Source: Hydrurus foetidus (Eukaryota). Taken from it: a stretch of 64,000 nucleotides of DNA. Shown here one piece after another: positions 10,241 through 57,074 of the stretch. The DNA lies in NCBI GenBank assembly GCA_900617105.1, contig UYFQ01000006.1, forward strand, positions 496,001 to 560,000, written 5' to 3'. Numbering within the stretch: the first letter of the stretch is position 1; every line of letters starts with the position of its first letter. The notes under the pieces are model-generated. The model had not been told where the DNA came from. It saw nothing but the letters and a program-made list of their open reading frames with translations, and ran no database searches. The translations under genes and the position numbers were made by a program.

Positions 10241-11620
10241 ATGTTGCGCACCTCCCTTGACCCCATCGTCGCTATCGCCACCGCCTCTGGGCGCGGAGCG
10301 GTTGGCATCATCCGCTTGTCTGGCCCCTCGTTGGGCGATCTCGTCCAGGTGCTTTGTGGCCGCGCACTGCGACCTCGTGAGGCCACTTACCTCAAGCTGC
10401 ACGCAGCCGATGGCAGTGTGATTGACCAGGGGCTGGCCCTCCACTTCCCCGCACCACACTCGTACACCGGTGAAGAAGTGCTGGAGCTGCAAGTCCACGG
10501 TGGTCCGGTCGTGCTGCAACTGCTGTTGGCCCGTTGCTTAGAGGCAGGTGCCACGCAGGGTCTGCGCTTGGCACGCCCTGGCGAGTTCACCGAGCGGGCT
10601 TTTTTGAACGACAAAATAGACCTCGCCCAAGCCGAGGCGATTGCCGATTTGATCGACGCCAGTACCGAGGCCGCCGCCCGCAGCGCCAGCCGCTCGCTCG
10701 CCGGTGAGTTCTCCAACGAAGTTCACCACTTGCGTGATGGCCTGATTCACCTGCGGATGCTGGTCGAGGCGACGCTGGATTTCCCAGAGGAAGAAATTGA
10801 CTTCCTGCGCAAGGCAGATGCGCACGGACAGCTATTGAATTTGCAGCAATCTCTGCGCCAATTGTTTGACCGTGCCCGCCAAGGTGCGTTGCTGCGCGAA
10901 GGCATCAAAGTAGTGATAGCCGGGCAACCGAACGCAGGCAAAAGCTCGCTGCTGAACGCCCTGGCTGGGGCCGAGCTGGCCATCGTCACCCCAGTAGCCG
11001 GCACCACCCGCGATGTGGTCACGCAGACGATTCAAATTGAAGGCATCCCTGTGCATGTGGTGGACACCGCCGGGCTGCGTAACAGCAGCGACGAGGTAGA
11101 GCAAATCGGCATTGCACGCGCTTGGGGACAGATTGAAAGCGCTGATGCCGTGCTTTTTTTGCATGATTTAACACGAAGAAATGCTATTGAATACATAGCT
11201 TCTGACGCTGATATAGCAAGCTCCATAGCCCAAAAACTTCCCCCTTCTGTGCCGGTGATCGACGTGTGGAACAAGCTCGACAGCGCAGGGGATGTATCGG
11301 ACCTGCCCGCCGGGCTTCATCTGTCCGCCAAAACAGGTGCAGGTCTGCAGACCTTGCGCCAACGCTTGCTGACCGTTGGCGGCTGGCAAACCCACCCCGA
11401 GGGCGTGTTCATCGCCCGCGAACGCCACCTGCATGCCTTGCGCCGCGCCCAAACCCATGTGGACGAAGCCATGGCACAGTTGAATGTAACCGTGCCTGCA
11501 TTAGATCTGCTGGCCGAGGAATTGCGCCTGTCTCAAAGCGCCTTGAACGACATTACCGGTGAATTCAGCGCTGATGATCTCTTGGGCGTGATTTTTTCTC
11601 AATTTTGCATTGGTAAATAG
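10241..11620 (+). CDS. mnmE: tRNA modification GTPase MnmE
   Basis: [35 protein letters not shown]-terminal FSQFCIGK. Confidence 0.98.
11183..11238 (+). repeat. Dispersed two-palindrome motif, copy inside mnmE
   Basis: GCTAT TGAATAC ATAGC TTCTGA CGCTGATATAGCAAGCTC; reads [13 protein letters not shown]. Confidence 0.75.
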
Positions 11621-11663
11621 ATGGCACATGTTTCACGGGTTAACACGAACCTCGAAGGTTAAA

Positions 11664-11686
11664 TGCACCGAATTGGTGTTTTTTTT
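11664..11686 (+). terminator. Possible intrinsic terminator after mnmE
   Basis: GCACCG-AAT-TGGTGT followed by a T run; also resembles an NtrC-type TGCACC-N5-GGTGCA site. Confidence 0.5.
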
Positions 11687-11855
11687 GGTAATTAATCACA
11701 AAATTTAATAGGCAAGGTCAGACATAATTTCAACGCTTACTGGGTGCATTGACGGCCAATTTTCAGGCTACAACCCGGCTTACTCGCGGCCAGTGTGCCT
11801 GCACGGTGTGATGCATTGAACCAGACGCTCAACCGTGCCCTACTTTGAGCATCCT

Positions 11856-12329
11856 ATGTCTTGGTTAGACCGCATCTTTGGCCGGCCCAACAGCTTGGAA
11901 TTGGATGAAGTGACGCGCTTGCAGATGCCAGAGCGCCGCCGAAAATCTACGCCCAGCACTGGCATTGCAGCAACCAAAATCCTCAATCCTGCGCACAGCC
12001 GCCGCCGCAGTGACCGTGCGGCAAGGCGTGATCTGCTGCAAGCCGTGGTACGCGAAGCATTGGCAGATTTAGGGGTGCTGTCGCTCCATTACAAGTTCAA
12101 GGTGATGTCGGTTGACCAAGAAGGCACCCAGTTTGTGGTACTGATTGACTTATCGCTGGCCTTCAGTGCCGATATTCCCTTGCTGAAGAAAATGGAAATG
12201 GCCATTATTCATCGCGCTCTCAGCCTGCATCATTTGACAATCAATGCCGTCTTTTGGCGCAGAACGAACACCATCGAACGCAAACCCACTAACGTGGCAG
12301 GTCATAGCCAATACGGAGATTTACGCTGA
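11856..12329 (+). CDS. Hypothetical protein
   Basis: Fills the gap between mnmE and the antiporter; LLQAVVREAL...YKFKVMSVD resembles Comamonadaceae hypotheticals (from memory); start uncertain (11835 GTG or 11856 ATG). Confidence 0.7.
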   Translation: MSWLDRIFGRPNSLELDEVTRLQMPERRRKSTPSTGIAATKILNPAHSRRRSDRAARRDLLQAVVREALADLGVLSLHYKFKVMSVDQEGTQFVVLIDLSLAFSADIPLLKKMEMAIIHRALSLHHLTINAVFWRRTNTIERKPTNVAGHSQYGDLR

Positions 12330-12348
12330 TGGAGATACTTCGTAGGCG

Positions 12349-14334
12349 TTAGCCGTTGAGCAGTTTTTGCGCAGCCAAAGCCAGCGCCTCCGGTTTGCCT
12401 GACAGCACCAAGGTGTCACCATCGCACAATACAGTGCTGTCATCGGGCACCAGAGCACTGCCACCATGACGACGCAGGCTGACAGTGCGGGCACCCAGCA
12501 AAGGCAAAGCCAACGCCCCTATCTCACGGCCTAACGATTTAGCTCCCGGTGGCAGCGTCAACGTTTCCAAGCGATCATGGCCAAATTCGCTGGGCGTATC
12601 GTCGTCCCCTCCGTGAAAATAGCCCCGCAGCAGGTTGTAACGGGCATCGCGCTGGTCTTGCACCACCCGAATCACGCGGCGCATCGGCACGCCCACCAGC
12701 GCCAGCGCATGGCTGGCCAGCATCAGCGAGCCTTCAATTGCTTCGGGCACCACTTCGGTGGCTCCAGCGGCTTGCAGTTGCTCTAAGTTCAAGTCGTCTT
12801 GGGTACGCACAATCACAGGCACCAACGGAGCATGCGAGCGGATATTGGCCAGCACCTTCAGGGCGCCCGGCACGTCGAGGTAGGTAATCACTACGGCACT
12901 GGCCCTTACCAGTCCAGCGGCCATGATGGCTTGCAAGCGGGAGGCATCGCCATACACCACCGAGTCCCCCGCCGCTGCGGCTTGCTGTACGCGGTCAGGG
13001 TCTAAGTCCAGCGCCATGTAGGGGATGTTTTCGCGCTCCAGAATGCGTGCCAAGTTTTGCCCGCAACGGCCATAGCCACAAATAATCACATGGCGGCTGC
13101 TGTTGATTGATTTGCGTGCAATGTGGGTCATTTGCAACGACTGTTGCAGCCATTCGCTGGCCACCAGCTTCATCACAATGCGGTTGCTGAACATGACGAT
13201 GACGGGCGTGGCCAGCATCGACAGCACCATGCTGGCCAAAATTGGGTTGAGCAGATGCGGCGGCACCAGCGCCGAGCTTTGCGCCAGCGTCAACAGCACA
13301 AAGCCAAATTCACCCGCTTGTGCCAAATACAGACCAGTGCGCAAGGACACGCCGGTGGTCGCGCCAAAGCCGCGTGCCAGCGCCGTCACCAGCAGCAGTT
13401 TGAACAGCACCGGCAGCGTCAGCAACAGCAGCACCAGGGGCCAGCGCTCCAGCACAATGTGCCAGTCCAGCAGCATCCCAATGGTGATGAAAAATAGCCC
13501 CAGCAGCACATCGTGAAACGGACGAATATCGGTTTCCACCTGGTGCTTGTATTCAGTTTCTGAAATCAACATACCGGCGATAAAAGCACCCAGCGCCAAA
13601 CTCAGACCCGCCAACTCGGTCAACCAGGCCAGCCCCAGGGTGATGAGCAGCAGGTTCAGCACAAACAGCTCTTCGCTCTTGCGCCGCACCACAATCGTCA
13701 GCCACCAGCGCATCACGCGCTGTCCACCCACCAGCAGCACGGTGATAAGCACTACCGCCTTCAGTGTCGCCAAGGCGAGGGCAACCAGCAAATTCTCGGC
13801 AGAAGCCCCCAGCGCAGGGATCAGCACCAGCAGCGGCACTACCGCCAAATCTTGGAACAGCAGCACGCCCATCACGCGCTTGCCGTGCTCGCTCTCCATC
13901 TCCAAGCGCTCGGCCATCAGTTTGACGATGATGGCCGTGCTGCTCATGGCCAGTGCCCCCGAGAGCGCCACCACGGTTTGCCAACGCATTTGCCACGAGG
14001 CAGGCAGCCAGCGTGATACCAGCAAGGCCCCCGCCGTGGCCAGCCCAATCGTCAGCACCACCTGCAGCAGCCCCAGCCCAAACACATGCTTGCGCATCGC
14101 CCGCAGCTTCGGCAGATTGAATTCCAAGCCAATCACGAACATCAGAAACACCACACCAAATTCGCCAAGATGCCGAATGCCTTCAGAGTTTTGCGCCAGC
14201 GCCAGTGCGTTTGGCCCAATCACCACGCCCACCACCAAGTAACCCAACATCGGCGGCAGCAGCAATTTGCGGCACGCTACCACCCCCAGCACAGCGGCCA
14301 GCAGGTACATGAGGGTGAGTTCGAGGGAGGACAT
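12349..14334 (-). CDS. Monovalent cation:proton antiporter-2 (KefB/KefC-like) with TrkA-N and TrkA-C domains
   Basis: Many TM helices, GVVFLMFVIGLEF, LLFQD, ICGYGRCG Rossmann motif. Confidence 0.92.
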   Translation of the reverse strand: MSSLELTLMYLLAAVLGVVACRKLLLPPMLGYLVVGVVIGPNALALAQNSEGIRHLGEFGVVFLMFVIGLEFNLPKLRAMRKHVFGLGLLQVVLTIGLATAGALLVSRWLPASWQMRWQTVVALSGALAMSSTAIIVKLMAERLEMESEHGKRVMGVLLFQDLAVVPLLVLIPALGASAENLLVALALATLKAVVLITVLLVGGQRVMRWWLTIVVRRKSEELFVLNLLLITLGLAWLTELAGLSLALGAFIAGMLISETEYKHQVETDIRPFHDVLLGLFFITIGMLLDWHIVLERWPLVLLLLTLPVLFKLLLVTALARGFGATTGVSLRTGLYLAQAGEFGFVLLTLAQSSALVPPHLLNPILASMVLSMLATPVIVMFSNRIVMKLVASEWLQQSLQMTHIARKSINSSRHVIICGYGRCGQNLARILERENIPYMALDLDPDRVQQAAAAGDSVVYGDASRLQAIMAAGLVRASAVVITYLDVPGALKVLANIRSHAPLVPVIVRTQDDLNLEQLQAAGATEVVPEAIEGSLMLASHALALVGVPMRRVIRVVQDQRDARYNLLRGYFHGGDDDTPSEFGHDRLETLTLPPGAKSLGREIGALALPLLGARTVSLRRHGGSALVPDDSTVLCDGDTLVLSGKPEALALAAQKLLNG

Positions 14335-14426
14335 GGTCGGTGAAGAGTGAAGCTTTGGATACTAGCAAGTTATGTGTCAACCTCACGCCGGAGGTGTACG
14401 GCTTTTGGCTACCCCGATAAAATCTA

Positions 14427-15973: not shown

Positions 15974-15976
15974 TTC

Positions 15977-16612: not shown

Positions 16613-17416
16613 ATGGTTCCTCTTGTTTTCATCACCGGTGCGTCCAGTGGCTTGGGCCAAGCCCTGGCGTGGCGGTTTTACCAAGCAGGCTACCGGCTGG
16701 CCTTGGTGGCCCGCCGCACCGCAGAGATAGAACGCTGGGCTACCGCTTGCCAGATAAGCACCGAACGCTATCAAATTTACAGCGCTGATGTCTCAGATAC
16801 CGATGCAATGGTGGCCGTGGGTGCCGCCTGCATCCAAGCCCAAGGCGTGCCCGATGTGGTGATTGCCAATGCGGGCATCAGCGTAGGCATCGACACTGCA
16901 TGCCGCGCCGACATCGACGTGATGGCCCGCGTGTTCGCCACCAACAACATCGGCATGATGGCGACATTTCACCCGTTTGTGGCTGCGATGACCGCGCGTG
17001 CTGCCGCCAGTGGGGCCGGTGGCACCTTGGTGGGCATTGGCAGCGTGGCCGGTATCCGTGGTTTGCCCGGCCACGGTGCCTACAGCGCCAGCAAGGCCGC
17101 TGCCATCACCTATTTGGAAAGCCTGCGTGGCGAGATGCAGCCCTTGGGCGTGCGGGTGGTGACAGTGTGCCCCGGTTATATCGACACACCGCTCACGCAA
17201 AAGAACCGCTACAGCATGCCGTTTTTAATGCAACCCGAAGATTTCGCTGACAAAGCGTTTGAAGCGATTGTGGCGGGGGCCAGCTACCGCGTGATCCCCT
17301 GGCAGATGGGGGTCATCGCCAAACTCTTGCGCTTGCTGCCCAACGCGCTGTACGACAAGCTGCTGGCAGGCCGACCACGCAAGCACCGAGACTCAGAAAA
17401 CCAAAGCCCACGCTGA
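16613..17416 (+). CDS. Short-chain dehydrogenase/reductase
   Basis: TGASSGLG, ANAG, YSASK. Confidence 0.93.
   Translation: MVPLVFITGASSGLGQALAWRFYQAGYRLALVARRTAEIERWATACQISTERYQIYSADVSDTDAMVAVGAACIQAQGVPDVVIANAGISVGIDTACRADIDVMARVFATNNIGMMATFHPFVAAMTARAAASGAGGTLVGIGSVAGIRGLPGHGAYSASKAAAITYLESLRGEMQPLGVRVVTVCPGYIDTPLTQKNRYSMPFLMQPEDFADKAFEAIVAGASYRVIPWQMGVIAKLLRLLPNALYDKLLAGRPRKHRDSENQSPR
16728..16783 (-). repeat. Dispersed two-palindrome motif, reverse copy inside the SDR gene
   Basis: CCGCTTGCCAGATAAGCA CCGAAC GCTAT CAAATTT ACAGC. Confidence 0.75.
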
Positions 17417-18232: not shown

Positions 18233-18424
18233 TCAGTCTTCGCGGTAATTTCGCCACTCGCGCATGGCATTGCGCATCGTCAGTACCTGACGCTCGAATA
18301 CCGGGCAAGCCTTGCACGCAAACATGTGCAGCCGCAGCGCCACCCGATCAGGCACGCGCAAGGGCTGGTCTTCTTGGGCGATCAGCAAGGCCGCAACCTC
18401 TCTGCAAGTTCTGCGCAAGATCAT
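18233..18424 (-). CDS. Zinc-finger (zf-HC2/ZAS) anti-sigma factor, 63 aa
   Basis: C...HMFACKAC (HxxxCxxC); ATGA-coupled to the ECF sigma gene. Confidence 0.88.
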   Translation of the reverse strand: MILRRTCREVAALLIAQEDQPLRVPDRVALRLHMFACKACPVFERQVLTMRNAMREWRNYRED

Positions 18425-19005
18425 GGTGTAACTCGGCTTCCAAACCAGTTGAGCTCCAGGCATTCGCGCAAACGCAAACGGGCCCGGTGCAATTGAACAT
18501 ACAGGTTCGTCGTGGTGAGGTTGGTTTCCTTACAAATTTCTTCGGTTGACAGCTCCAACCACTCCCGCATCAAAAAAACCCGGCCCAAACCTGCGGGCAG
18601 CGCGTCGGTGCAAGCTTCCAGTATTTTGAAAAACTGCTGCGTGCGCAAATCTTGCTCGGGATTGCCCCAGTCTGAAGGCGCACAGGTGAAGTGGCCATCG
18701 CCCTTGAACATCAGCGCGTCCAGCTCCTCTGCGCCATCGCCATCGTCGCAGGTATCAAGCTGCACCTCCCGCGCACGTGAGCGCAGTTGGTCAATCACCT
18801 TGTGCTTGAGGATGCCTACCAGCCAGGTTTTGAGCTGCGATTTGCTCTCAAACGCTTGTGGCTTGCTAAGGGCTGCCAGCGTGGTTTCAGACACAGCGTC
18901 TTCAGCCCAACTGTCGTTGCGCAACTGCATGCGGGCAAAGCGCAGCAAGTAGCTGTGGTGGCTGGCGAGTTGCGCTTCAAAATCGGTAGCGGGGGCGTGG
19001 GACAT
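18421..19005 (-). CDS. ECF RNA polymerase sigma factor (TIGR02943-like)
   Basis: WAEDAVSET, LKTWLVGILKHK, VQLHRARLRLRECL. Confidence 0.92.
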   Translation of the reverse strand: MSHAPATDFEAQLASHHSYLLRFARMQLRNDSWAEDAVSETTLAALSKPQAFESKSQLKTWLVGILKHKVIDQLRSRAREVQLDTCDDGDGAEELDALMFKGDGHFTCAPSDWGNPEQDLRTQQFFKILEACTDALPAGLGRVFLMREWLELSTEEICKETNLTTTNLYVQLHRARLRLRECLELNWFGSRVTP

Positions 19006-19111
19006 TTGTGTGAAACCGTAGTTTTCAGCGATCATCGCACAGCAGAATGACCGGTTATCCACAGCTGTCCAGTCTTGGCGCATCGCTCAATTTAAAAAAT
19101 TTTCACACGCA

Positions 19112-19140
19112 TGTAAGAAGTTGGCCCATAAACTGACCAA
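19112..19140 (+). promoter_or_regulatory. Candidate ECF promoter of the DUF2282 operon
   Basis: TGTAAG-N17-GACCAA after an AT-rich stretch; GTAA-type -35 elements are typical of ECFs linked to DUF692 loci. Confidence 0.45.
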
Positions 19141-19204
19141 CGCTTAACCAGTCATTTTGCTGGTGAAACGTGCCTCTTTTCCTTTAACCCTTCAGGAGTT
19201 TTCC

Positions 19205-19486
19205 ATGAACCAACGTGCCCTTATCGCTGCTGCTGCCGCCACCGTGTTGTCTTCCATGCTGGTCTCTATGCCCGCAGCCGCCCAAGAGAAAGAAAAATGT
19301 TTCGGCATCGCCAAAATGGGCCAAAACGACTGCGCCAACCTCTCAGGCTCACATTCATGCGCCGGTCAGTCCAAGATGGACATGGGTGCTGACGAGTGGA
19401 AATATGTCGCCAAAGGTACTTGCGTCAGCATGAAAGGCATGACTGCTGAGCAAGTCAAAATGAAGATGACGGACAAAAAGAGCTGA
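19205..19486 (+). CDS. DUF2282 / bufferin BufA1-type RiPP precursor (93 aa)
   Basis: SD CAGGAG; Sec signal ending PAAA; EKCFGIAKMGQNDC...HSCAGQS...EWKYVAKGTC (four Cys). Confidence 0.9.
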   Translation: MNQRALIAAAAATVLSSMLVSMPAAAQEKEKCFGIAKMGQNDCANLSGSHSCAGQSKMDMGADEWKYVAKGTCVSMKGMTAEQVKMKMTDKKS

Positions 19487-19494
19487 TCGCATTT

Positions 19495-19550
19495 GCTTTT
19501 AATTCAATAGCAACTAACGCATATAAAACGTGGGCTAAGCTCAATGAGAC
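19495..19550 (+). repeat. Dispersed two-palindrome motif, intergenic copy
   Basis: GCTTT TAATTCA ATAGC AACTAA CGCATATAAAACGTGGGC TAAG. Confidence 0.75.
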
Positions 19551-19565
19551 AACTGAATTAGCCCC

Positions 19566-20471
19566 ATGAGAACGATCCCCAAAAGCGCCGGCATAGGCTG
19601 GCGCCACCCCCATTACGCCGCCCTGATGGACACCCGCCCGCCGCTGGGGTTCATCGAGGTGCATTCTGAAAACTTCTTCGGCGCAGGCGGTGCCGCCTTG
19701 GCCGTGCTGCAACAAGCCCGTGCCCACTACCCGCTCAGCCTGCACGGTGTCGGTTTGGGACTGGGTTCTGCCATCGGTATCGACGGCTGGCATCTCGACC
19801 AACTGGCTCAACTGGTTGAGCGCACCGAGCCTTGGCTGGTCAGCGACCACGCCTGCTTTGCCCGCGGTCATTTGGAGCAGGGCCAGCCCATCCACGCTGC
19901 CGATTTACTCCCCATCCCCTTCAACCGCGAGGCACTGGACGTGCTGTGCGCCAACGTGCAGCGCGTGCAAGACCGCTTACAGCAAAGCATCGCCGTCGAA
20001 AACCTGTCCGCCTATATCCGCTGGAACAGTGACGAGCAGACCGAGCCTGAATTCTTGGCGGCGCTCGCCAAGCGCACCGGCTGCAAGCTGCTGATCGACG
20101 TGAACAACATCTACGTCAACGCCCTGAACGCAGCAAACGACTCGAACGACTCTAAAACCATAGCTGCTAACGCCCAGCAGTATTGTTGTAATTGGCTGAA
20201 CAACATCCCCGCCAGCGCCGTCGCCGAGCTGCACCTCGCCGGGCACACCGACTGCGGCGATATCGTCATCGACGACCACAGCCGCCGCGTTTGCGATGCC
20301 GTCTGGCAGCTCTACAGCCACGCCCTGCGGTGCTTCGGCCCCGTGCCCACGTTGATTGAGTGGGACACCGACATCCCGCCGCTGCACGTCTTGCTCGACG
20401 AAGCCGCCCAAGCTGACCTTCTGACCAACAGCCTTGTCAACCTCCTCGCCACCGAAGTGCAAGCCCCATGA
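19566..20471 (+). CDS. DUF692 multinuclear non-heme iron oxidative enzyme (MNIO, BufB-like)
   Basis: [56 protein letters not shown]. Confidence 0.95.
20148..20203 (+). repeat. Dispersed two-palindrome motif, copy inside the DUF692 gene
   Basis: GACTC TAAAACC ATAGC TGCTAA CGCCCAGCAGTATTGTTG; left half-arm degenerate. Confidence 0.65.
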
Positions 20472-21280
20472 GCCCGCTCGCCGCCAGCCAGCAAGCCCTG
20501 CTGACCACCCTGTTCGCCTCTGGCCGCCACAGCGCAAAGATTGCTACTGAATTCATAGCTACTCACGCCCATCAGACAAGCAGAAGAGGCTTAAATGCCT
20601 ACCAAAGCAACGCCCACAGCCTCGCTGAGCGCAGCTTGCAGGCCGTCTACCCCGTGCTGGCCCAGTTGCTGGGTAACGAGAGCTTTGCCGCCTTCGCCCG
20701 CGCCTTCTGGCACGCCCACCCGCCCCAGCGCGGCGACTTGGCGCACTGGGGTGACGCACTCGCCGACTTCACCGCCGCCAGCCCGCAATTGGCCGATGTG
20801 CCCTACCTCGCCGATGTCGCCCGCGTCGAATGGGCCTTGCACCAAGCCGCCACCGCCCCAGACGCTGATGCCGACTTGGCCACCCTGCACCACCTGATGG
20901 AACAAGACCCCGCCGTGCTGCACCTGCACCTCGCCCCCGGCGTCAAGCTGGTACACAGCGACTGGCCCGTGGTCAGCATCGTCCATGCCCATGCGGTGGC
21001 AGACGGCGCAGCGCCCAACCTCAGCCACGCGCACGAACGGCTGCACAGCGGCACCACAGAAACCGCCCTGGTCTGGCGCCAAGGCTTCAAGCCCCAAGTC
21101 CGCGAAGCCCTGCCGGGTGAACCCGCTTTCGTAGCCGCGCTGCACGCCGGGCGCACCTTGGACGAGGCTTTCAGCGCCACCGAATCCGCAACATCCGCCG
21201 CCACCTTCGATTTCACCGTCTGGCTGCCCCAAGCTGTGTCCACCGGCCTGCTGCTGGCCGTGAACTGCATCGCACCTTGA
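20468..21280 (+). CDS. DUF2063 MNIO partner protein (BufC-like)
   Basis: GLNAYQSN...[13 protein letters not shown]...[15 protein letters not shown]-coupled to DUF692. Confidence 0.9.
20543..20598 (+). repeat. Dispersed two-palindrome motif, copy inside the DUF2063 gene
   Basis: GCTAC TGAATTC ATAGC TACTCA CGCCCATCAGACAAGCAG AAGAGGCTTAAATG. Confidence 0.85.
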
Positions 21281-21296
21281 ATTTTTGGAAAACCGT

Positions 21297-21782
21297 ATGA
21301 ACCTGACCTTGCAACGCGCCGTCAACCTCTGGAACCTGCTCAGCCACGGCCTGCGCAGCCTGCAAGCCCCCCTCAGCTTGGCTGCTCGGCTCTACGTCGC
21401 CCATGCGTTTTGGCTCTCAGGCCTGACCAAACTCCAAGACTGGGGCACCACGCTGGCGCTGTTTGCGGACGAGTACCACGTCCCCTTCTTGCCCACCCCC
21501 GTGGCGGCAGTGATGGGCACCGCAGGCGAGCTGGTGCTGCCCGTGCTGTTGGTGCTGGGCGTGGGGGGCCGCTTCGCCGCTCTGGGCTTGTCCGTGGTGA
21601 ACGCCATCGCCGTCATCAGCCTCACGGACATTGCCCCGCTGGCGCTGCAACAGCATGTGCTGTGGGGGGTCTTGCTGGCCGGGCTCGCGGCGTTTGGCCC
21701 CGGTGCCTGGGCGGCAGAGCGTTGGGTGTGGCCGTGGTTGCAAGCGCGGCTGGGTCAAAGCAAGGGTCACTCCGGCGCATGA
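21297..21782 (+). CDS. DoxX family membrane protein (BufD-like)
   Basis: ARLYVAHAFWLSGLTK, ELVLPVLLVLG, GPGAWA. Confidence 0.9.
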   Translation: MNLTLQRAVNLWNLLSHGLRSLQAPLSLAARLYVAHAFWLSGLTKLQDWGTTLALFADEYHVPFLPTPVAAVMGTAGELVLPVLLVLGVGGRFAALGLSVVNAIAVISLTDIAPLALQQHVLWGVLLAGLAAFGPGAWAAERWVWPWLQARLGQSKGHSGA

Positions 21783-26715: not shown

Positions 26716-26751
26716 AACCCGGCTTCGTTTTTAGCGATGCTGGGTTTTTTT
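26716..26751 (+). terminator. Intrinsic terminator in the metX leader (riboswitch expression platform)
   Basis: AACCCGGC-T-TCG...CGA-T-GCTGGGTT followed by a T run. Confidence 0.8.
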
Positions 26752-26799
26752 ATGCACGTTTCAAAACACGCCTCAAAACACGCTTTTGCACACGCTCCT

Positions 26800-28545
26800 A
26801 TGCTCGCCGTTCCACAGTTCATGTCCTTCGCCGCACCGCTTGCCCTGCAAAGCGGTGCCTCCATCCGCGCCTATACGCTGGCCTATGAGACCTACGGCAC
26901 GCTGAATGCCAACAAGTCCAACGCCGTGCTGGTTTGCCACGCGCTCAACGCCTCGCACCATGTGGCGGGCGTGTACGAAGGCCAGCCCAAGAGCGAAGGC
27001 TGGTGGGACAACATGATTGGCCCCGGCAAGCCGCTGGACACGGACAAATTTTTCGTCATCGGCATCAACAATCTGGGCTCGTGCTTTGGCTCCACCGGGC
27101 CGATGCACACCCACCCGGACACAGGCCGCATCTACGGTGCCGACTTCCCCGTGGTGACGGTGGAAGACTGGGTGAACGCCCAAGCTAATCTGCTCGATGA
27201 ACTTGGCATCCAAACCCTGGCCGCCGTGATGGGAGGCAGCCTGGGCGGCATGCAGGCGCTTAGCTGGACATTGCAATACCCTGACCGTGTGCGCCACGCC
27301 GTGGTGATCGCCAGCGCCCCCAACCTGACGGCAGAAAACATCGCCTTCAACGAAGTCGCCCGCCGAGCCATCGTCACCGACCCGGACTTCCACGGTGGAA
27401 ACTTTTACGAGCACAGCGTGATCCCCAAACGCGGCCTGCGCATCGCCCGCATGATCGGCCACATCACCTACCTGAGCGATGACGTGATGAACGAGAAGTT
27501 CGGACGACAGTTGCGGGACGGCGATGCGTACAAGTATTCAACCCAAGACGTTGAATTCCAGATCGAAAGCTACCTGCGCCATCAAGGCGACAAGTTCAGC
27601 GAAACCTTCGATGCCAACACCTACCTGCTTATCACCCGGGCGCTGGACTACTTCGATCCAGCACGCCAGCACAACGCCAGCCTGAGCGCCGCGTTGGCAA
27701 AAGCGAAGGCCAAGTTCCTGCTCGTCAGCTTCACTACCGATTGGCGCTTCTCCCCCAAACGCAGCCGCGAAATCGTCAAAGCCCTGCTCGACAACCGCCG
27801 CGACGTGAGCTACGCCGAGATTGATGCGCCGCACGGTCACGATGCCTTTTTACTCGATGATGCCCGCTACATGGCCTTGGTACGCTCTTATTTTGAGAGC
27901 ATTGATGCAACACTGAACCTGTCCACTACCGCAGCGTCCGCCCTCAAGGCGCATTCCAGCCCGGCCCCCACCCACCAGTCCATCGCCAACCTCGTCCCCT
28001 CGCAGTCCCGCGTGCTCGATTTAGGCTGCGGCGATGGCCGCTTGCTGGCCCACCTGCAAGCCCACCGCGCCTGCACCGGCTACGGCATCGAAATCAGCGA
28101 CGCCCATGTGCTGGCCTGCGTGCAAGCCGGGGTGAATGTCATCCAACTCAACTTGGAAGAAGGTCTTTCGCTGTTTGAAGACACCTCGTTCGACGTGGTG
28201 CTGCAAGTCGATACCCTGCCCCACCTGCGCAACGCCGAAACCATGCTGCAAGAAACCGCCCGCGTAGGCCGCACCGGCATCGTCGCCTTCCCTAATTTCG
28301 CCCACTGGCCCAACCGCCTGAGCGTGCTGCAAGGCCGCATGCCCGTTACCAAACGTCTGCCCTACCAGTGGTACGACACACCCAACATCCGCGTGGGCAC
28401 GTTCAAGGATTTTGAAGCGCTGGCGCAGAAGAACGGCTTGAAGCTGCTCGATGCTTTTGGTCTGCAAGACGGCGTGGAAGTGCGCTGGCTGCCGAACGCG
28501 CGGGCGGGGACGGCAGTGTTTCGGTTCACGCGGGTTGGCGCGTAA
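26800..28545 (+). CDS. metX: Fused homoserine O-acyltransferase MetX and methionine biosynthesis protein MetW
   Basis: Met[32 protein letters not shown]; in-frame Met[30 protein letters not shown]. Confidence 0.92.
27845..27900 (-). repeat. Dispersed two-palindrome motif, reverse copy at the end of the MetX domain
   Basis: ATGCCCGCTACATGGCCT TGGTAC GCTCT TATTTTG AGAGC. Confidence 0.7.
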
Positions 28546-28566: not shown

Positions 28567-28661
28567 TCGGGAACACAGCCTCCCGAATCCTTTACGGATA
28601 GACGGTGTCCCGTCCAAGTGCTGGCAACATCCCCTTGGGGGAATTTCGCCTATGGACACCG
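28567..28661 (+). ncRNA. Structured chrB leader, candidate chrB-a/chrB-b-type cis-regulatory RNA
   Basis: Hairpins TCGGGA/TCCCGA, ATCC/GGAT, GACGG/CCGTC, TCCCC/GGGGA; CGGTGTCC (28603-28610) complements GGACACCG (28654-28661) at the start codon. Confidence 0.5.
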
Positions 28662-29551: not shown

Positions 29552-30952
29552 ATGACCACCTCATCACCCATGTCCCCCACACCGTCCCTCGCCGCCCCCG
29601 TTTCGCTCACCTTCACCGAGGCGCTCCAATTCTGGTTCAAGCTCGGCCTTATCAGTTTTGGTGGCCCCGCCGGGCAAATCGCCATCATGCACCGTGAGCT
29701 GGTGGAGCAAAAGCGCTGGATCAGCGAAAAGCGCTTCCTCCATGCCCTGAACTACTGCATGTTGCTGCCTGGCCCCGAGGCGCAGCAGCTCGCCACCTAC
29801 ATCGGTTGGCTGCTGCACCGCACCTGGGGCGGCGTAGCGGCGGGTGCGCTGTTTGTGCTGCCCTCGTTGTTCATTTTGATCGCTTTGAGCTGGATTTATG
29901 TGGCCTTTGGCGCGGTGCCCTGGGTGGCGGGACTGCTGTACGGCATCAAACCAGCGGTGGCGGCACTGGTCGTGCAGGCGGTACACCGCATTGGCAGTAA
30001 AACCCTTAAAAAACCGACAAAAGCGCCCATCCTGTGGGCGATAGCAGCTATCAGTTTTGTAGCTATTTACGTGTTTGCCGTGCCCTTTCCCGCCATCGTG
30101 TTGGGCGCGGCGGTTGTCGGTTGGTTGGGATCTAAGTTCGCGCCTGCGCAGTTCACGGGTGGTGGGCATGGTGCGGTGAAAGCCAACCAAGATGCCCAAT
30201 TAAGCCCCGCGCTCATCGACGACGACACCCCCACACCAGAACATGCCCGCTTCAAACCCACCCGCTTGGCTGCGGTGGTGGGTGTAGGGGCTGCACTCTG
30301 GCTGCTGCCGATGGGCGCGTTGATCGCATGGCAGGGTTGGGACGCGACGCTGACGCAGATGGGCTGGTTCTTCACCAAGGCCGCGTTGCTGACCTTCGGT
30401 GGCGCGTATGCCGTGCTGCCCTACGTCTACCAGGGCGCGGTGGAACAGTTCAGCTGGCTCACCGGCACGCAGATGATCGACGGCCTCGCTTTGGGCGAAA
30501 CCACACCCGGCCCGCTCATCATGGTGGTGGCTTTTGTGGGCTTTTTGGGGGGCTGGAGCAAGGCGGTGCTGGGGCCAGACGCGCTGTTCCTGGGGGCCGC
30601 GTTGGCCGCCACGGTGGTGACGTGGTTCACCTTTTTGCCGTCGTTCATCTTCATCCTGGCCGGTGGGCCGCTGGTCGAGGCCACACATGGCAAGCTGCAA
30701 TTCACCGCCCCGCTCACAGCCATCACGGCAGCGGTGGTGGGGGTGATCGCCAGTTTAGCTCTGTTTTTCATAGCGCACATCGCTTTAAAAACGGGCGGTA
30801 ATGGCGCTTTTTATACCCAAATAGATTGGGTGGCCCTGGCGTTGGCCTTGGCGGCGGGGGTGGCGCTGATACGCTTCAAACGCGGCGTGATTCCGGTGAT
30901 TGCCGCCTGTGCGCTGGCCGGGCTGGTGCTGCGGCTGGTGGGGTGGGCGTGA
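29552..30952 (+). CDS. chrA: Chromate efflux transporter ChrA
   Basis: SFGGPAGQI, LLPGPEAQQ, TFGGAYAV, ETTPGP. Confidence 0.95.
   Translation: MTTSSPMSPTPSLAAPVSLTFTEALQFWFKLGLISFGGPAGQIAIMHRELVEQKRWISEKRFLHALNYCMLLPGPEAQQLATYIGWLLHRTWGGVAAGALFVLPSLFILIALSWIYVAFGAVPWVAGLLYGIKPAVAALVVQAVHRIGSKTLKKPTKAPILWAIAAISFVAIYVFAVPFPAIVLGAAVVGWLGSKFAPAQFTGGGHGAVKANQDAQLSPALIDDDTPTPEHARFKPTRLAAVVGVGAALWLLPMGALIAWQGWDATLTQMGWFFTKAALLTFGGAYAVLPYVYQGAVEQFSWLTGTQMIDGLALGETTPGPLIMVVAFVGFLGGWSKAVLGPDALFLGAALAATVVTWFTFLPSFIFILAGGPLVEATHGKLQFTAPLTAITAAVVGVIASLALFFIAHIALKTGGNGAFYTQIDWVALALALAAGVALIRFKRGVIPVIAACALAGLVLRLVGWA
30008..30063 (-). repeat. Dispersed two-palindrome motif, reverse copy inside chrA
   Basis: GCGCCCATCCTGTGGGCG ATAGCA GCTAT CAGTTTT GTAGC. 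Confidence 0.85.
30758..30813 (+). repeat. Dispersed two-palindrome motif, forward copy inside chrA
   Basis: GCTCT GTTTTTC ATAGC GCACAT CGCTTTAAAAACGGGCGG TAATGGCGCTTTTT. Confidence 0.8.
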
Positions 30953-40215: not shown

Positions 40216-40938
40216 ATGACGGAATCCCAAGCCCGCGATGACATTTGCCGCATCGGCCAAAGCCTGTTCCAGCGCGGCTACGTCCACGCCACCGCAGGCA
40301 ACATCAGCGTGCGTTTGGACGACGCGCAAGGTGGTGGCTTCCTCATCACACCCACCGATGCTTGTTTGGGCTTTTTAGACCCGGCCCGCTTGGCCCGCCT
40401 GGATGCAAAGCTGAACCCTGTCAGCGGTGACAAGGCAAGCAAAACCATAGCACTCCATACATACATATACAGCGCTGCAAGGCGATTTGATCCCCAAACC
40501 TGCTGCGTCATCCACACCCACAGCACCCATTGCGTGCAGCTCAGCCTGCAAGCAGAGCAGCCCGCTAACACGTCCGACAACACACCTGACGACGACACCG
40601 AGCTGCTGCCCGCCCTGACCCCCTACTTCGTCATGAAGGTAGGCCATGTCCCGCTAATACCCTACCACCGCCCTGGTGCGCCGCAAGCCGCCGAAGCCGT
40701 CGCCCAGGCCATCATCCGCTACGGCGAGCGCGGCACCCCGTTGCGGGCCGTGATGCTGGCCCGCCTGGGGCCCAACGTCTGGCACGACAGCCCTGCGGCA
40801 GCGATGGCCACCCTGGAAGAGCTGGAAGAAACGGCGCGGCTGGCCTGTCAACTTCGCGCGTCTGGCCGGCCCTTTCCGGCACCCTTAACCTCGCCCCAAA
40901 TTCACGAGCTGCGCGATACCTTTGGCGCACGCTGGTAA
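40216..40938 (+). CDS. otnC: 3-oxo-tetronate 4-phosphate decarboxylase (class II aldolase family)
   Basis: AGNISVR, ITPT, IHTHSTH, LEELEETA. Confidence 0.85.
   Translation: MTESQARDDICRIGQSLFQRGYVHATAGNISVRLDDAQGGGFLITPTDACLGFLDPARLARLDAKLNPVSGDKASKTIALHTYIYSAARRFDPQTCCVIHTHSTHCVQLSLQAEQPANTSDNTPDDDTELLPALTPYFVMKVGHVPLIPYHRPGAPQAAEAVAQAIIRYGERGTPLRAVMLARLGPNVWHDSPAAAMATLEELEETARLACQLRASGRPFPAPLTSPQIHELRDTFGARW
40435..40490 (+). repeat. Dispersed two-palindrome motif, copy inside otnC
   Basis: GCAAG CAAAACC ATAGC ACTCCA TACATACATATACAGCGC TGCAAGGCGATTTGA. Confidence 0.7.
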
Positions 40939-41831: not shown

Positions 41832-42513
41832 AGACTTTTCTGAGCCATCCCTGAAGTGCGCTGTAGAGGGGCGCATGGGGGTTCAAAAGTTGGGGATTGA
41901 CAGCGTTGTAAAGTCCGTGCCCAGGCTTTTCTTGCCACGCCAGCCAAGTGGCGACTTCGGCCTTGGTTCTGTGGAGTGGTTTGAATTTAGGGCTGCCAGG
42001 TATCTTGTCTATGGCGTCTATCGCTGTGCAGCCATGTTGGTACAACGCGGCTTCATCGGGGTGCAGGCACCGTCTGATCCAGTCTTCCAACATGCCTTCG
42101 TCTGCGTTGTTGGGCATCACCCACAAGCCCACATCAGCAAACCCATCGTTGTGCTCAAAAATCAACCCCTCAGCAGGGCTTGCGGTTGAGAGGATGTAGC
42201 CAGCGCTTTGCAAAGCCGCACTGACCCGTGCGCAAGCTGGCGAGAAACCGCCGCCGTTGATTTGACTGTCAGCATCCACCACGACAGCGAGCTTTTCAAT
42301 TCCCCCATCCTCCAGTTGCTTGAGCAAGGTGGGGAGCAGTTTGAAAACCCCTTCTTTCGAATTCTTGGTCGTGGCGGTTGAGGCCAAATCCTTCGGTGTG
42401 GCGACGCGAATGGCAACTTCAATGGCGGATTCACGGCAGAGGACTTCAAAGAATCCACGGTATGCCTCACCCTCCACCAGCAAAATATGCTTCTCGCTCT
42501 TTTTCTCGCTCAT
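41821..42513 (-). CDS. DUF3226 (TOPRIM-like) protein
   Basis: [40 protein letters not shown]; coupled to the AAA ATPase. Confidence 0.8.
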
Positions 42514-43664
42514 CGCACTTCCATCTCACTTTGGGTGATCGCGTACAGCGCTTCCTCTTCAAAGACCGTGGCGATGACCTTGCCCTTGTCGCTGGTACGC
42601 ACACTTTTGCCCATGCGGAAAAGCACCCCCTCAATGTCGGCGTGTGCCCGCGCCACTTGGGTGAAGCTCTCAATGCAATCCCAGCTGTGCGTGGTGGCAA
42701 AAACCTGTACATCGAGTTTCTCAGCCATCTCAAACAACATCGTCCATACTTTTTCTTGCACGCTGTAGTGGAGGCCATTTTCAAACTCGTCAATCAGCAG
42801 AAAGCCCCCTTTGGCGGAGAGCAATTTCAGCGTCAGTTGCAACACCCGCACCACGCCATCACCCAAGCTTTTCAAGGGTACGGGCCTCAGCGCGTTGGAC
42901 AGCCTGACTTTGCCACTGCGTTGAATGCGTCGCGGTGATGTGGAGTTGACTGAGTCATTACGGACAAATGCCAAGGCATCGAACTCCGGTGCAATGATGC
43001 GCATCGCTTCTTTGACAAGTTCTGCGTCGTCACTCAACGCAATCTTGTCCCACTCGTCAGCAAATTCATCTTGTGAGACAAACTGTGTCGGAACCACGCT
43101 GCATGGGATGGCGCTGGCGAAATCGAATTTTGGTGTTTTGAACCGTCCAGGCGCAACATCCAAAAAGCACAAGGGGAATTTTCGTTTCCCTTGGCTGATT
43201 TGCAGAGCCTGCATGATGTCGTCAGTTGTGCTGGCGGCACCCGATTTCAGAAGCTCTTTGTTATGCAGAAAAAAACTGCGGTTGCCATTGTCAGTTGGCT
43301 GGGTAGTCTCAGTCACCAGAACATGCTTAATCAACAAGGCGGCTGGGTGGTCAGAAGTGCTGCCAATGTGTATCGCCGTGTCGTCGTCAGCAGGAAACAT
43401 GCGCCCTGCGAAAAAATCTTGGAAAGGCAAAGTTGTATCCTGCTCCATACCCTCAGCATCTCCTGCGGTGTATTTCTCATCATGTTCAGCAGCGATGGCC
43501 TCCAAAAGCACATGCTGACCATTGCCTGCGTAGATCCGTAAAGCCTCAAGCACAGAGCTTTTCCCCGAGTTGTTTTTACCCACAATCAGGTTGATGCGGC
43601 CAAGCTTCTCCACTTGAAAGTCAGTCAATGACCTGAAGTTTTTGATGTGCAGTGAATCCAGCAT
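42510..43664 (-). CDS. AAA_15/AAA_21 ABC-type ATPase
   Basis: IKNFRS, GKNNSGKS, LGDG, LIDEFENGLH, FATTHS. Confidence 0.92.
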   Translation of the reverse strand: MLDSLHIKNFRSLTDFQVEKLGRINLIVGKNNSGKSSVLEALRIYAGNGQHVLLEAIAAEHDEKYTAGDAEGMEQDTTLPFQDFFAGRMFPADDDTAIHIGSTSDHPAALLIKHVLVTETTQPTDNGNRSFFLHNKELLKSGAASTTDDIMQALQISQGKRKFPLCFLDVAPGRFKTPKFDFASAIPCSVVPTQFVSQDEFADEWDKIALSDDAELVKEAMRIIAPEFDALAFVRNDSVNSTSPRRIQRSGKVRLSNALRPVPLKSLGDGVVRVLQLTLKLLSAKGGFLLIDEFENGLHYSVQEKVWTMLFEMAEKLDVQVFATTHSWDCIESFTQVARAHADIEGVLFRMGKSVRTSDKGKVIATVFEEEALYAITQSEMEVR

Positions 43665-43687
43665 GGTGCAATCGTTGGTGTGGTGTT

Positions 43688-43743
43688 TGAAATCGGTCTT
43701 CAGCGCTTGTCAATCAAGCAGAAGTAGCTATTGAATCAGAAGC
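43688..43743 (-). repeat. Dispersed two-palindrome motif, intergenic reverse copy
   Basis: TGAAATCGGTCTTCA GCGCTTGTCAATCAAGCA GAAGTA GCTAT TGAATCA GAAGC. Confidence 0.88.
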
Positions 43744-43790
43744 AACTAGACCACAAGCGTTCATGAAGAATGCATGGGATTATGTCTCCC

Positions 43791-49038: not shown

Positions 49039-50009
49039 GCATCAGCATGAGCCCCGCCACAACCACCACCCGCCAAGAAATTTTGCTGCTGGTTGAAAAA
49101 TGCAGCCACTGCTTCAGTTACTACAATATTGATAGCGGAAAACGCTTGTACAGCTTACAGCTACCAGACTTTCCGCATGAATTTGTGGTTGATGCGGCTC
49201 AACGCTACGCCTACATCGGCCACTACGGCGTGGAAACCTCGGGCCACCTGGGGGCAGGCGGCACCAGCATCTTCCAGATCGACATTGCCGAGCGCCGTCT
49301 GGCCCGCACCATCGACATCGCACCCTTCAACCGCCTGCACGGGATGCAAATCGACGACCAAGACCGCCTCTACGCGCTGAGCGAAGACCGTGCGCAACTG
49401 GTGGTACTCGATAAACCCGCCACCGACACAGCACCCCGCCGCGCCGTGCCCACGGGCGGCATCAAATCGCACCTGTTTGCGTTGACGCGCGACGGCCAGA
49501 CCGCCTATGCGATGAACCTGCTGAGCCACACCGTCACCCAAATCAAACCCTACGACGCAACCTTCACCCCGCTCGCCTGTTCGCCCGGCGAAAAGCCCGA
49601 AGGCTATGCGCTGAGCGCAGACGAAAAGACGCTCTACGTCACCTGCCGCTGGAGCAACACTCTGGTCGCCATCGACACCGCCACCATGCAGGTCATCCAT
49701 CGCGCCCCCAGCCGTGACGATGCCACGCGGCTTTACCTCTACAGCCGTGCAGGTCAAGCAGACCGTCTGGTGGTGACGAACTACGGCGAGCGCAGCATCA
49801 GCGTGGTGGAACCCGAGACGCTGAAAGAAATCGCCCACATCCCGATGGAAGCCCGCGCCATCGCGCTCAGCTACCACCCCACCCAGCCGCTGGCCTTTGT
49901 CAGCCAAGACAACGACAAACTGGGCTACTTCAACATGGACACGCTGCGGTTTGAGCGCTTCATCGCCACGCAGCGCGAGCCTGATGTGTCGCGGGTCATC
50001 CTGGTATGA
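49035..50009 (+). CDS. YncE/YVTN-like beta-propeller protein, no signal peptide
   Basis: Repeated PH/PEG...LYVT blades. Confidence 0.7.
   Translation: MSISMSPATTTTRQEILLLVEKCSHCFSYYNIDSGKRLYSLQLPDFPHEFVVDAAQRYAYIGHYGVETSGHLGAGGTSIFQIDIAERRLARTIDIAPFNRLHGMQIDDQDRLYALSEDRAQLVVLDKPATDTAPRRAVPTGGIKSHLFALTRDGQTAYAMNLLSHTVTQIKPYDATFTPLACSPGEKPEGYALSADEKTLYVTCRWSNTLVAIDTATMQVIHRAPSRDDATRLYLYSRAGQADRLVVTNYGERSISVVEPETLKEIAHIPMEARAIALSYHPTQPLAFVSQDNDKLGYFNMDTLRFERFIATQREPDVSRVILV
49120..49175 (+). repeat. Dispersed two-palindrome motif, copy inside the beta-propeller gene
   Basis: ACTAC AATATTG ATAGC GGAAAA CGCTTGTACAGCTTACAG. Confidence 0.65.
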
Positions 50010-52669: not shown

Positions 52670-52688
52670 GGTTTTTTCGGAGACAAGC

Positions 52689-53819: not shown

Positions 53820-53858
53820 GCACGAAGTTTGCAAATAGGCACACCAACAAGCGCCCCC

Positions 53859-54964: not shown

Positions 54965-54996
<32 letters not shown>

Positions 54997-55615
54997 TGGC
55001 CGCTCTATCGTGCGTGAACCTGCGGTGTTTTTGTTCGACGAACCCCTCTCTAACCTCGATGCCAAACTGCGCGGCCACATGCGTACCGAGCTGGCCCTGC
55101 TGCACGAGCGCCTGGGCAAAACCACGGTGTACGTGACGCACGACCAGGTGGAAGCCATGACGCTGGCCTCGCGCATCGTGATTTTTGACAAAGGCCGCAT
55201 CCAGCAGGTGGGCGCACCGTCCGAGGTGTTCAACCAACCTGCGAACCTGTTCGTCGCCGCTTTCATTGGCATGCCCAGCATGAATTTGCTGGACGCGGCT
55301 TCCTTCTCTTTTGCGCTGCCGAATGACCGTGTCTTGCCTGCGCAATTGGTGGTGGGTGTGCGCCCGCAGTCACTGCGGTTGGCGGACAGTGCGGGCACAG
55401 GCGTGGGTGCTGGTGCCTTGCAGATGAAGGTGAGCTTCGTCGAGTACCTGGGGACGGAATCGGTGCTGGTGGGCCAGTTGGCAGGCAGTGCCGAGGCGCG
55501 TACCACCGCTGTGGTTCCTGGCCACCGCACCGATTTGCTGCACCAAACCGTGGGGCTGGAGGTTGACCCAGCGGCCCTGCATTGGTTCGACAAGGCCACA
55601 GGCTTACGCGTCTGA
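54554..55615 (+). CDS. CUT1 (MalK-like) ABC ATP-binding protein
   Basis: GESGCGKS, VFQNYALYPH, LSGGQRQR, DEPLSNLD. Confidence 0.96.
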
Positions 55616-55669
55616 GTGCGCGCGCAAATGCCCATGTGGATTTGATTTTTTAACCTGTTGGAGACAACC

Positions 55670-57010
55670 ATGAAGAGAAGAACATTGATCCAGTCTGCCG
55701 GGGGCACTGCCCTGGGTTTGATGGGCGCAGGCCTGCCCTTGGTCGGCATGGCGCAAGACCGTTTTGCCAAGTACAAAGGCCAAACCGTGGTGATGAGCAT
55801 CCCGGCCCATCCGCATTACGACGCGATGCTCAAGCTGCTGCCCGAGTTCACTAAGCAAACCGGCATCAAAGTTGAATTTGACAAACTGGCCGTGCCCCGC
55901 ATGAAGGACAAACAGGTGCTGGAAATGGCCAAGCCCCAAGGTGATTACGACCTGGTGTGCTACGTGGTGATGTGGAAGGGCGAGTACGTCAAAAAGAACC
56001 TGATCCGCGAACTCGACCCGTTCTTTAAAAATCCGGCGCTGGCCGACCCCGAGTACGACTTCAAAGACGTGGTTCCCCGCTATGTCGAAAACATCGGTCT
56101 GGTGGGTGGCCCCAAAGGCTATTTGGCGGGCCCCGGTGCCAAGCTGTACGGCATGCCCTACGGCGCGGAAACCTCCATCCTGGCCTACCGCCGCGATGTG
56201 TTTGCCAAGCTCAACCTGCAAGCGCCTGAGACCTACACCGATCTGGAAAAACTCTTGCCCGTGCTGAAAGACAAAGCCGGCATAGGGGCCATGACCTCGC
56301 GCGGCCAAGCCGGGCACCAGTGCGTGCATGCGTGGTTGCTGCACTTGAATCCCCTGGGCGGCAAAGTGTTTGATGCCAACTGGAAACCCGTCTTCAACAA
56401 TGACATCGGCGTGAAAGCCCTGAAGATGCTGAAGCTGATTTCCGACACCGGCCCGGTCGGTGTGCCCGGCTACGGCCAAGGCGAGATGATTACCTCGTTC
56501 TTGCAAGGCCAGTCGGCGATGTACCTGGATTCGTCCCTGATTTTTGGGCAGGTCAACGACCCGGCCAAATCGAAAATCGCAGGGCAGGTCAGCTACGTGG
56601 TACACCCGAAAGGCACGCGCTACTCGTCGCAATCGGGCGGCTTGGGGCTGGCGATTCCGAAGAACGCCAAGAACCCCGATGCCGCGTTTTTGCTGATGCA
56701 GTGGCTGACCAGCAAAGCGCAGGACAAAGCCGTCTGCCGCGCTGGCGGTGTGCCCACCCGCAATTCCACGCTGATGGACGCGGACATGGTGCGCCAGTAC
56801 CCCGAGTACATCACCTTGCGCCAGCAGCTGGAGTATTCCGACCCTGATTGGCGGCCCATCATTGCCGAGTGGGACGAAATCAACATCCAGGCGCTGGGTG
56901 TGGCGGTGTCCGAAGCCCTGACCGGCAAAAAGACCCCCGAGGAAGCCCTGAATGGCATCGTGCCCAAGGTGACGGACATCATGAAGCGCGGCGGCTACCT
57001 CAAGGGCTGA
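55670..57010 (+). CDS. CUT1 ABC substrate-binding protein with twin-arginine-like signal
   Basis: MKRRTLIQ; SD GGAG; LYGMPYGAET. Confidence 0.9.
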   Translation: MKRRTLIQSAGGTALGLMGAGLPLVGMAQDRFAKYKGQTVVMSIPAHPHYDAMLKLLPEFTKQTGIKVEFDKLAVPRMKDKQVLEMAKPQGDYDLVCYVVMWKGEYVKKNLIRELDPFFKNPALADPEYDFKDVVPRYVENIGLVGGPKGYLAGPGAKLYGMPYGAETSILAYRRDVFAKLNLQAPETYTDLEKLLPVLKDKAGIGAMTSRGQAGHQCVHAWLLHLNPLGGKVFDANWKPVFNNDIGVKALKMLKLISDTGPVGVPGYGQGEMITSFLQGQSAMYLDSSLIFGQVNDPAKSKIAGQVSYVVHPKGTRYSSQSGGLGLAIPKNAKNPDAAFLLMQWLTSKAQDKAVCRAGGVPTRNSTLMDADMVRQYPEYITLRQQLEYSDPDWRPIIAEWDEINIQALGVAVSEALTGKKTPEEALNGIVPKVTDIMKRGGYLKG

Positions 57011-57018
57011 TTCAGGCC

Positions 57019-57074
57019 ACTACAAAAACAATAGCTGCATGCGCATACAGAATAAGCGCAGGAAGCCTATTTGA
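57019..57074 (+). repeat. Dispersed two-palindrome motif, intergenic forward copy
   Basis: ACTAC AAAAACA ATAGC TGCATG CGCATACAGAATAAGCGC AGGAAGCCTATTTGA. Confidence 0.88.

Follow-up and report, generated by a model that had tools for sequence, protein, structure and literature searches.

To our knowledge, specific uptake signals have been established for no more than two bacterial families. The DNA uptake sequences (DUS) of Neisseriaceae and the uptake signal sequences (USS) of Pasteurellaceae occur, according to the parts of PMC2817400 covered, as hundreds of dispersed copies on both strands, some of them coding with a frame bias and arising by point change; they are scarce in recently acquired genes and differ as dialects between lineages. 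A motif with all of these features is present in a 64-kb stretch of contig UYFQ01000006.1 (hereafter the window). The window covers the origin region of a freshwater bacterium of the Comamonadaceae, with recQ, gyrB, dnaN, dnaA, yidC and mnmE in this order ahead of accessory genes, and the relatives of its MnmE come from Acidovorax, Rhodoferax, Ramlibacter and others (the nearest, L001, at 88%). The motif differs from DUS and USS in being about 66 bp long and of several parts, against their 9-11-bp cores, in its lower density (about one copy per 6-7 kb in motif-rich Comamonadaceae), in its patchiness within the family and in being known from sequence alone. It is real, long and dispersed, it has been laid over genes by substitution, and it has dialects and is lost by decay.

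An earlier reading of the window from its letters, the original prediction, had listed 13 copies of a dispersed two-palindrome motif and three partial ones. Because circularity was to be avoided, copies were scored with a 67-column matrix trained on two other genomes, Rhodoferax ferrireducens BE313 (G003) and Acidovorax sp. M2 (G002), which supplied 116 copies in all from 400 kb per genome; this matrix, made from unrelated stretches, superseded an initial one skewed by orthologous mnmE sites. Genome-wide counts were likewise taken from relatives rather than from the window's own genome. At a whole-copy cut-off of 12 bits the window has 11 copies, eight in genes and three between genes (Table 1), and the same scan of the reversed and complemented windows gives no match. 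All 13 predicted coordinates hold the letters described and ten of them pass the cut-off (57019, 43743, 11183, 20543, 19495, 30063, 30758, 49120, 16783 and 40435), while those at 20148 (-25.8 bits), 27900 (-3.0) and 45383 (-7.7) fail as whole copies, only 27900 having a good first palindrome, or arm 1 (16.2 bits), which leaves the three as half-sites or chance resemblances. Of the partial copies, the one at 3755 qualifies as a good half-site for arm 1 (20.3 bits), and those at 18950-18990 and 61488-61528 are unsupported, so that the observation of a dispersed motif is partly confirmed. The eleventh copy, at 10847 in mnmE, is spanned with zero differences by a contig from an independent run. 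Seven coding matches exceed 15 bits, where two sets of 100 synonymous codon shuffles averaged 0.09-0.12 (maximum 1). As predicted, the copies form AT-rich patches, with a G+C content at third codon positions of 0.43 versus 0.73 outside, and are rich in the rare isoleucine codon ATA (10 of 17 isoleucine codons, versus 42 of 900 outside).

The 116-copy matrix extends the unit from the predicted 56 bp or so to positions -1 to 65, about 66 bp; it holds about 50 bits and has sharp edges and flat flanks. Arm 1 reads GCTAY-N7-RTAGC with an A/T centre, and the conservation of its T3, A15, G16 and C17 is 0.98-0.99. TGCTN, GCGC, 11 looser bases, GCGC and TAGAGGC follow 3′ of it, with an A/T tract at positions 51-54 and a second, weaker one at 61-64. 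Common to all genomes examined are CTAY-N7-RTAG in arm 1, with the A/T-rich centre, and GC-N7-GC after it; positions 27-41 vary in step within each genome. The motif is rigid and directional, 114 of the 116 copies being at offset 0, a figure that is partly circular given the ungapped matrix by which these copies were collected. Coupling is strongest between neighbouring positions, e.g. 8-10 and 52-54, which covary as A/T tracts, and compensatory pairing between arms within a species was not seen. Arm 2 had been described as often self-complementary; it is not a selected single-strand hairpin, as there is no covariation and a dialect with G at position 39 (G39) breaks the stem. No Rfam family matched the motif in a covariance-model search, and 10.5-bp helical phasing of the A/T tracts is not distinct. 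It is very probable that a protein reads the motif as double-stranded DNA. Arm 1 contains a T-N11-A dyad with an A/T-rich centre (T3 and A15 each 0.98), which is the form typical of LysR-type regulator sites. A resemblance to the arms of Xer cer/dif sites was noted as well.

Fragments of the motif are already listed, unexplained, in a 2017 survey by Tong et al. (PMC5217627), where, in the parts covered, they are put forward as potentially novel for A. ebreus and P. naphthalenivorans. The A. ebreus pair GCTTAT(N)5AAGCG corresponds to motif positions 25-40, the P. naphthalenivorans pair ATAGCT(N)22CAAAAG to positions 13-18 plus 41-46, and GCTAT_ATAGC (d=7) to arm 1; 140 pairs are given there for R. 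ferrireducens T118, and enrichment in convergent spacers was seen there too. These are separate word pairs, and the covered parts of that survey describe no 66-bp unit, overprinting, dialects or mechanism. No description of the whole motif was found in the literature searched, a scope outside which most subscription papers lie. Because its pieces were on record, novelty is put a little below the level guessed in the prediction.

Comparison with homologs bears on how copies came to lie within genes. A homolog was found for 22 of 51 coding copies from G002 and G003 and a motif-free comparator for 14, and 13 of these 14 sites have no motif-sized insertion. In mnmE the 10847 site is gap-free in all relatives compared and the 11183 site is without a motif-sized insertion; the SDR site bears the motif also in relatives from Acidovorax, Rhodoferax and Comamonas. 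A score above 0 at one or other mnmE site is seen in 10 of 13 motif-rich versus 1 of 26 motif-free genomes; the site scores track genome-wide abundance (Spearman 0.44 and 0.42), with 6-7 changes per site on a tree that has too few independent pairs for a test. Compromise states occur in which GAG replaces TAG in the stop frame. By the prediction the third reading frame would usually read TAG; that frame is not barred and is used, with TAG changed, by 10 of the 51 coding copies and by the 10847 copy, where a G at position 4 leaves no stop in the gene; in all, five reading frames are in use among the G002 and G003 copies and the 10847 copy takes the sixth. Among 11 Acidovorax relatives one spacer copy persists in 8 and in the rest decays at similar length. 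Differences in length are seen at the fourteenth site (L147:10344), which matches a 23-codon insertion relative to distant relatives, and at another Acidovorax spacer copy, present in 4 of 11, whose spacer is about 70 bp shorter where the copy is absent. From these alignments, substitution together with small indels appears to dominate, with occasional gain of length. The prediction that the motif is laid over the code instead of being an inserted REP (repetitive extragenic palindromic) or MITE (miniature inverted-repeat transposable element) sequence is supported, as matrix matches greatly outnumber those in codon-shuffled sequence, no host gene in the window shows an insertion of about 19 codons relative to orthologs and, of a link to RAYT (REP-associated tyrosine transposase) and a target duplication, both looked for, neither was found.

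The motif is strongly over-represented genome-wide on both strands, with strand-balanced counts, and its distribution is patchy. Only 3 of 301 genomes in an order-wide sample exceed the reversed control, and in a family sample of 251 genomes there are at least 8 matches in 33, 1-5 in 25 and none in 193. Among 50 named genomes, 76-544 copies are found in some Acidovorax, Rhodoferax, Polaromonas, Comamonas and Xylophilus, and 0-4 in Ramlibacter, two of three Limnohabitans-clade genomes, Hydrogenophaga, Paracidovorax citrulli and Giesbergeria. On an MnmE tree, a quick one with many open forks, motif-rich and motif-poor genomes alternate with 7 changes. Positions 27/28 and 36/37 are AG..CT in G003 and TT..AA in G002; other dialects, in samples that are small for some genomes, are G39 in 11 of 11 copies of G004, where it breaks the second dyad, GG in 7 of 8 copies of G310 and TTGG in 4 of 5 copies of G340. 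Dialects cut across genera and differ even between close relatives. A strictly symmetric dimer site, as the AG..CT and TT..AA pairs would allow, is weakened as a candidate by the one-sided G39 dialect.

Placement was analysed for 177 copies in 1.2 Mb, with genes called by a simple in-house finder: 51 lie within coding sequence, 47 extend across a gene end and 79 fall between genes. Convergent spacers are enriched (p=3e-5), divergent spacers are depleted (p=1e-3), and orientation to transcription is even (36 versus 37 in tandem spacers). Non-coding copies crowd stop codons, 52 of 75 and 46 of 76 being no more than 25 bp away, and their offsets suggest that the TAG of the motif is often the gene's stop. 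The sites that tolerate copies, in either orientation, are those right after stops, convergent spacers and loose protein segments. Spacing is near-exponential, with a single gap of 44-65 kb in every 400-kb sample; the three gaps coincide with catabolic islands or prophage. Replichore and macrodomain signals include KOPS (FtsK orienting polar sequences), matS and SlmA sites; on both strands of the one complete genome G002 the motif shows no terminus or replichore pattern, with 60 versus 62 copies per 400 kb across the KOPS switch. Terminus exclusion, suspected at first, was not confirmed, density being unchanged and polarity not flipping at the G002 terminus.

Phage and plasmid sets were ascertained rather than random, the plasmids being chosen by BLAST match. 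IMG/VR yielded 64 loci, against none with a scrambled control; in phage DNA there is one extra copy per 23 kb compared with one per 6.7 kb in hosts (55 non-redundant of the 64 loci), and copies lie in or by genes for terminase, portal, RecE/RecT, antirepressor and methylase (85 of 122 flanking open reading frames (ORFs) scanned). Giant DarB-like phage genes (L223, L260 and L271, IMG/VR) have two or three copies each, including an opposed pair 178 bp apart. Five Comamonadaceae plasmids with a BLAST match have 0, 2, 0, 3 and 5 strict matches, and the two conjugative plasmids tested have none in 0.71 Mb. On two Polaromonas plasmids (L452:1002-1066 and L454:1002-1066) a copy runs up to where a BREX (bacteriophage exclusion) gene, pglW or pglX, begins.

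A different kind of carrier is the integron cassette. BLAST with one motif copy matched 68 plasmid records, mostly within a 'DUF1010 protein', and the DUF1010/orfD cassette is on about 60 resistance-plasmid records. In R751 the cassette between dfrB3 and qacE, which we take to be orfD, carries one full 52-bit copy (L451:2498-2564). The start of the Pfam DUF1010 model (PF06231), annotated as a protein family, matches motif translations; because these matches often contain stop codons, the model likely reflects the DNA motif in part, and the family may thus in part model DNA, not protein. Chromosomal integrons of Acidovorax hold cassettes of about 320 bp built round one copy, two of them in tandem in G002. 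The DUF1010/orfD cassettes (L451, L458:1380-2020, L457 and L459) are mostly one motif copy plus partial repeats.

The motif resembles an uptake sequence in every comparative test run, and the most likely reading, to be held tentatively, is that it is a putative self-DNA uptake tag for natural transformation. In the molecular-drive model put forward for DUS and USS (PMC2817400, parts covered), DNA that matches better would be taken up and recombined more often, and near-matches would be drawn towards the consensus even where this somewhat impairs the protein. An altered reader would then shift all copies together and so give rise to dialects, and loss of the reader would let copies decay in place. 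Uptake drive is favoured because it accounts best for gains at random sites that alter proteins and for dialect shifts across whole genomes. According to the covered parts of PMC4212676, Acidovorax temperans and A. facilis are naturally competent, and selective DNA uptake has been shown indirectly in V. eiseniae, with no signal named in those parts. ComEC is present in 62 of 65 genomes, and in comEC itself an in-frame copy is present at one site in 15 of 19 motif-bearing versus 0 of 11 motif-free loci.

Several results weigh against an uptake tag. The comEC copy sits in a loose loop after a pre-adapted peptide, for which reason it may mark a mere permissive site. None of the candidate reader families tested tracks the motif: ComP_DUS pilins in 48 of 50 genomes, FimT/GspH in 13 of 15 and ComEC in 62 of 65 are all near-universal, and alignment and charge give no shared PilE signature. 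The T-N11-A form of arm 1 is that of a LysR-type site. The size of the motif, 66 bp and about 50 bits, far exceeds the 9-11 bp of known uptake cores (PMC4212676, parts covered), and V. eiseniae, for all its published selective uptake, had in the 2017 screen only one, unrelated, pair and none of the motif's word pairs (PMC5217627, parts covered). The 23-codon insertion, the longer spacer and the shortage of independent pairs on the tree count against it too.

A close rival, possible if rather more doubtful, is the binding site of a cytoplasmic oligomeric protein, be it a nucleoid organiser, a topology factor or a defence self-mark, selected at hundreds of sites. It is favoured on one count, because it better explains the motif's length and dyad: a LysR-type tetramer would suit both the T-N11-A form of arm 1 and a footprint near 60 bp. 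The long multi-part structure with rigid spacing (subject to the partial circularity noted above), the covariation of neighbouring bases as A/T tracts, as in shape readout, the avoidance of promoters, the copies in core genes of temperate phages and in dedicated integron cassettes, and the two plasmid copies that abut BREX genes are all in keeping with such a protein. Yet the promoter placement expected of LysR-type sites is not seen, divergent spacers being depleted and stop-adjacent positions preferred; spacing is random, not regular; origin, terminus and replichore patterns are all absent; most family genomes (193 of 251) are without a match; and a switch of specificity at about 1000 sites would be hard by selection alone, yet close relatives differ in dialect. 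The candidates among which the prediction had left the function (protein-binding, chromosome-organising or uptake signal) are narrowed, not settled.

An old REP/MITE-like element, once spread by insertion and later kept for function, is unlikely, and for coding copies such an origin is already largely refuted. As with the Rickettsia palindromic element (RPE), some copies are in frame within genes, but here coding copies replace codons rather than adding them, and conserved protein segments bear the motif without added length. The palindromic parts, the many copies and the positions near gene ends are shared with REP and its paired form REPIN, which go with RAYT, in the covered parts of PMC3733652, whose main text in those parts does not name these genera. 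The crowding at stop codons, the sharp edges, the one 23-codon insertion and the one longer spacer would fit insertion. Stem covariation, near-identical copies and a linked transposase, however, are all missing, the most alike copies being only 79-82% identical, and target-site duplication was not found (at best 3 of 116 copies in 756 tests). Y1_Tnp (RAYT) does not track the motif, being a single gene in motif-rich and motif-free genomes and not found in G317 and G258, both motif-rich. In most of the Comamonadaceae and Sphaerotilaceae searched there is a single Y1_Tnp (RAYT-like) gene of about 240 aa, e.g. G002:C1:1246680-1246967, that is possibly domesticated. The Betaproteobacterial repeat element (BRE; PMC3110155, parts covered) is likewise a Comamonadaceae repeat, mostly intergenic with some copies in genes, but by its description it is set apart at 75-91 bp, 69% G+C and 1-29 copies in tandem, against an A/T-rich motif present singly in hundreds of copies. 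VeiPR1 is mentioned as unique to V. eiseniae in the covered parts of PMC3975124.

Drive by another transfer route, either a packaging signal for transduction or a gene-transfer agent or a conjugative start signal, is improbable; the motif is directional, and temperate phages carry it in their terminase and portal genes or next to them, but phage DNA is depleted relative to hosts and the two conjugative plasmids lack strict matches. Least probable is an RNA-level terminator or mRNA-stabilising hairpin, which would account for the enrichment just past stop codons and between convergent genes but not for equal orientations in tandem spacers, the lack of compensatory changes, the stem-breaking G39 dialect or the lack of an Rfam match.

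Returning to the uptake tag, it is plausible, though no better than tentative, that sequence-specific DNA self-recognition exists in Comamonadaceae as a third, independent system. The tag of this system, 66 bp long and of several parts, would exceed DUS or USS several-fold in length, would combine constant and exchangeable dialect parts, would be strong enough to rewrite conserved proteins convergently, and would be packaged alone as integron cassettes (DUF1010/orfD) now in clinical class 1 integrons. A long modular uptake signal in a family abundant in freshwater, soil and wastewater would change models of gene flow there and could raise transformation of these hard-to-engineer bacteria, and a cytoplasmic reader would mean an undescribed chromosome-wide binding system. 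On either reading the motif biases protein sequences, so that convergent AIEYIA-type peptides can mislead trees, and the DUF1010/orfD resistance-plasmid cassette gains concrete content.

Table 1. Copies and half-sites of the motif in the window, scored with the matrix from two other genomes
Feature	Position	Strand	Score and comparison
Full copy in mnmE, sense frame (AIEYIA...)	11181..11247	+	41.3 bits; no motif-sized insertion versus 80 MnmE relatives
Full copy in mnmE, antisense (10847), overlooked in the original prediction	10783..10849	-	20.8 bits; gap-free in 80/80 relatives
Copy in SDR gene	16719..16785	-	16.2 bits; 34/34 ortholog rows gap-free
Intergenic copy immediately upstream of bufferin maturase (BufB/DUF692) gene	19493..19559	+	27.4 bits
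Copy in gene 20468-21280	20541..20607	+	41.0 bits; both homologs found bear the motif here too
Antisense copy in chrA	29999..30065	-	23.9 bits; 4-5 residues longer than motif-free paralog-like homologs
Sense copy in chrA	30756..30822	+	23.5 bits
Weak copy in otnC	40433..40499	+	14.0 bits; length equal to two motif-free orthologs
Intergenic copy between LysR-type regulator gene and AAA-family gene	43679..43745	-	42.5 bits
Copy in beta-propeller gene	49118..49184	+	17.3 bits, score carried by arm 1
Best copy, between two ABC transporter genes	57017..57083	+	55.8 bits
Arm-1 half-site between dnaN and gyrB	3753..3777	+	arm 1 20.3 bits, whole 8.4
Arm-1 half-site in metX	27879..27902	-	arm 1 16.2 bits; whole copy unsupported

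Some neighbouring genes merit mention. The gene at 20468-21280 was named DUF2063 in the prediction and has no NCBIfam match at 1e-10. The region 18421-21782 is a bufferin-type cluster (BufB/MNIO, HvfX-like), divergent from an extracytoplasmic function (ECF) sigma factor gene. At 26737-28545 metX and metW are fused into a single ORF of 602 aa, and at 28567-28624 the Rfam chrB-b RNA motif lies upstream of the rhodanese-chrA genes. Adjoining the 43743 copy is an AAA/ATPase-like gene (42510-43664) with weak matches to defence models (retron Eco8 effector and MADS3). Elsewhere, in ribD beside pilE, four genomes from at least three genera share a copy at one site (L424:2609, L425:2676, L433:693 and L435:2569).

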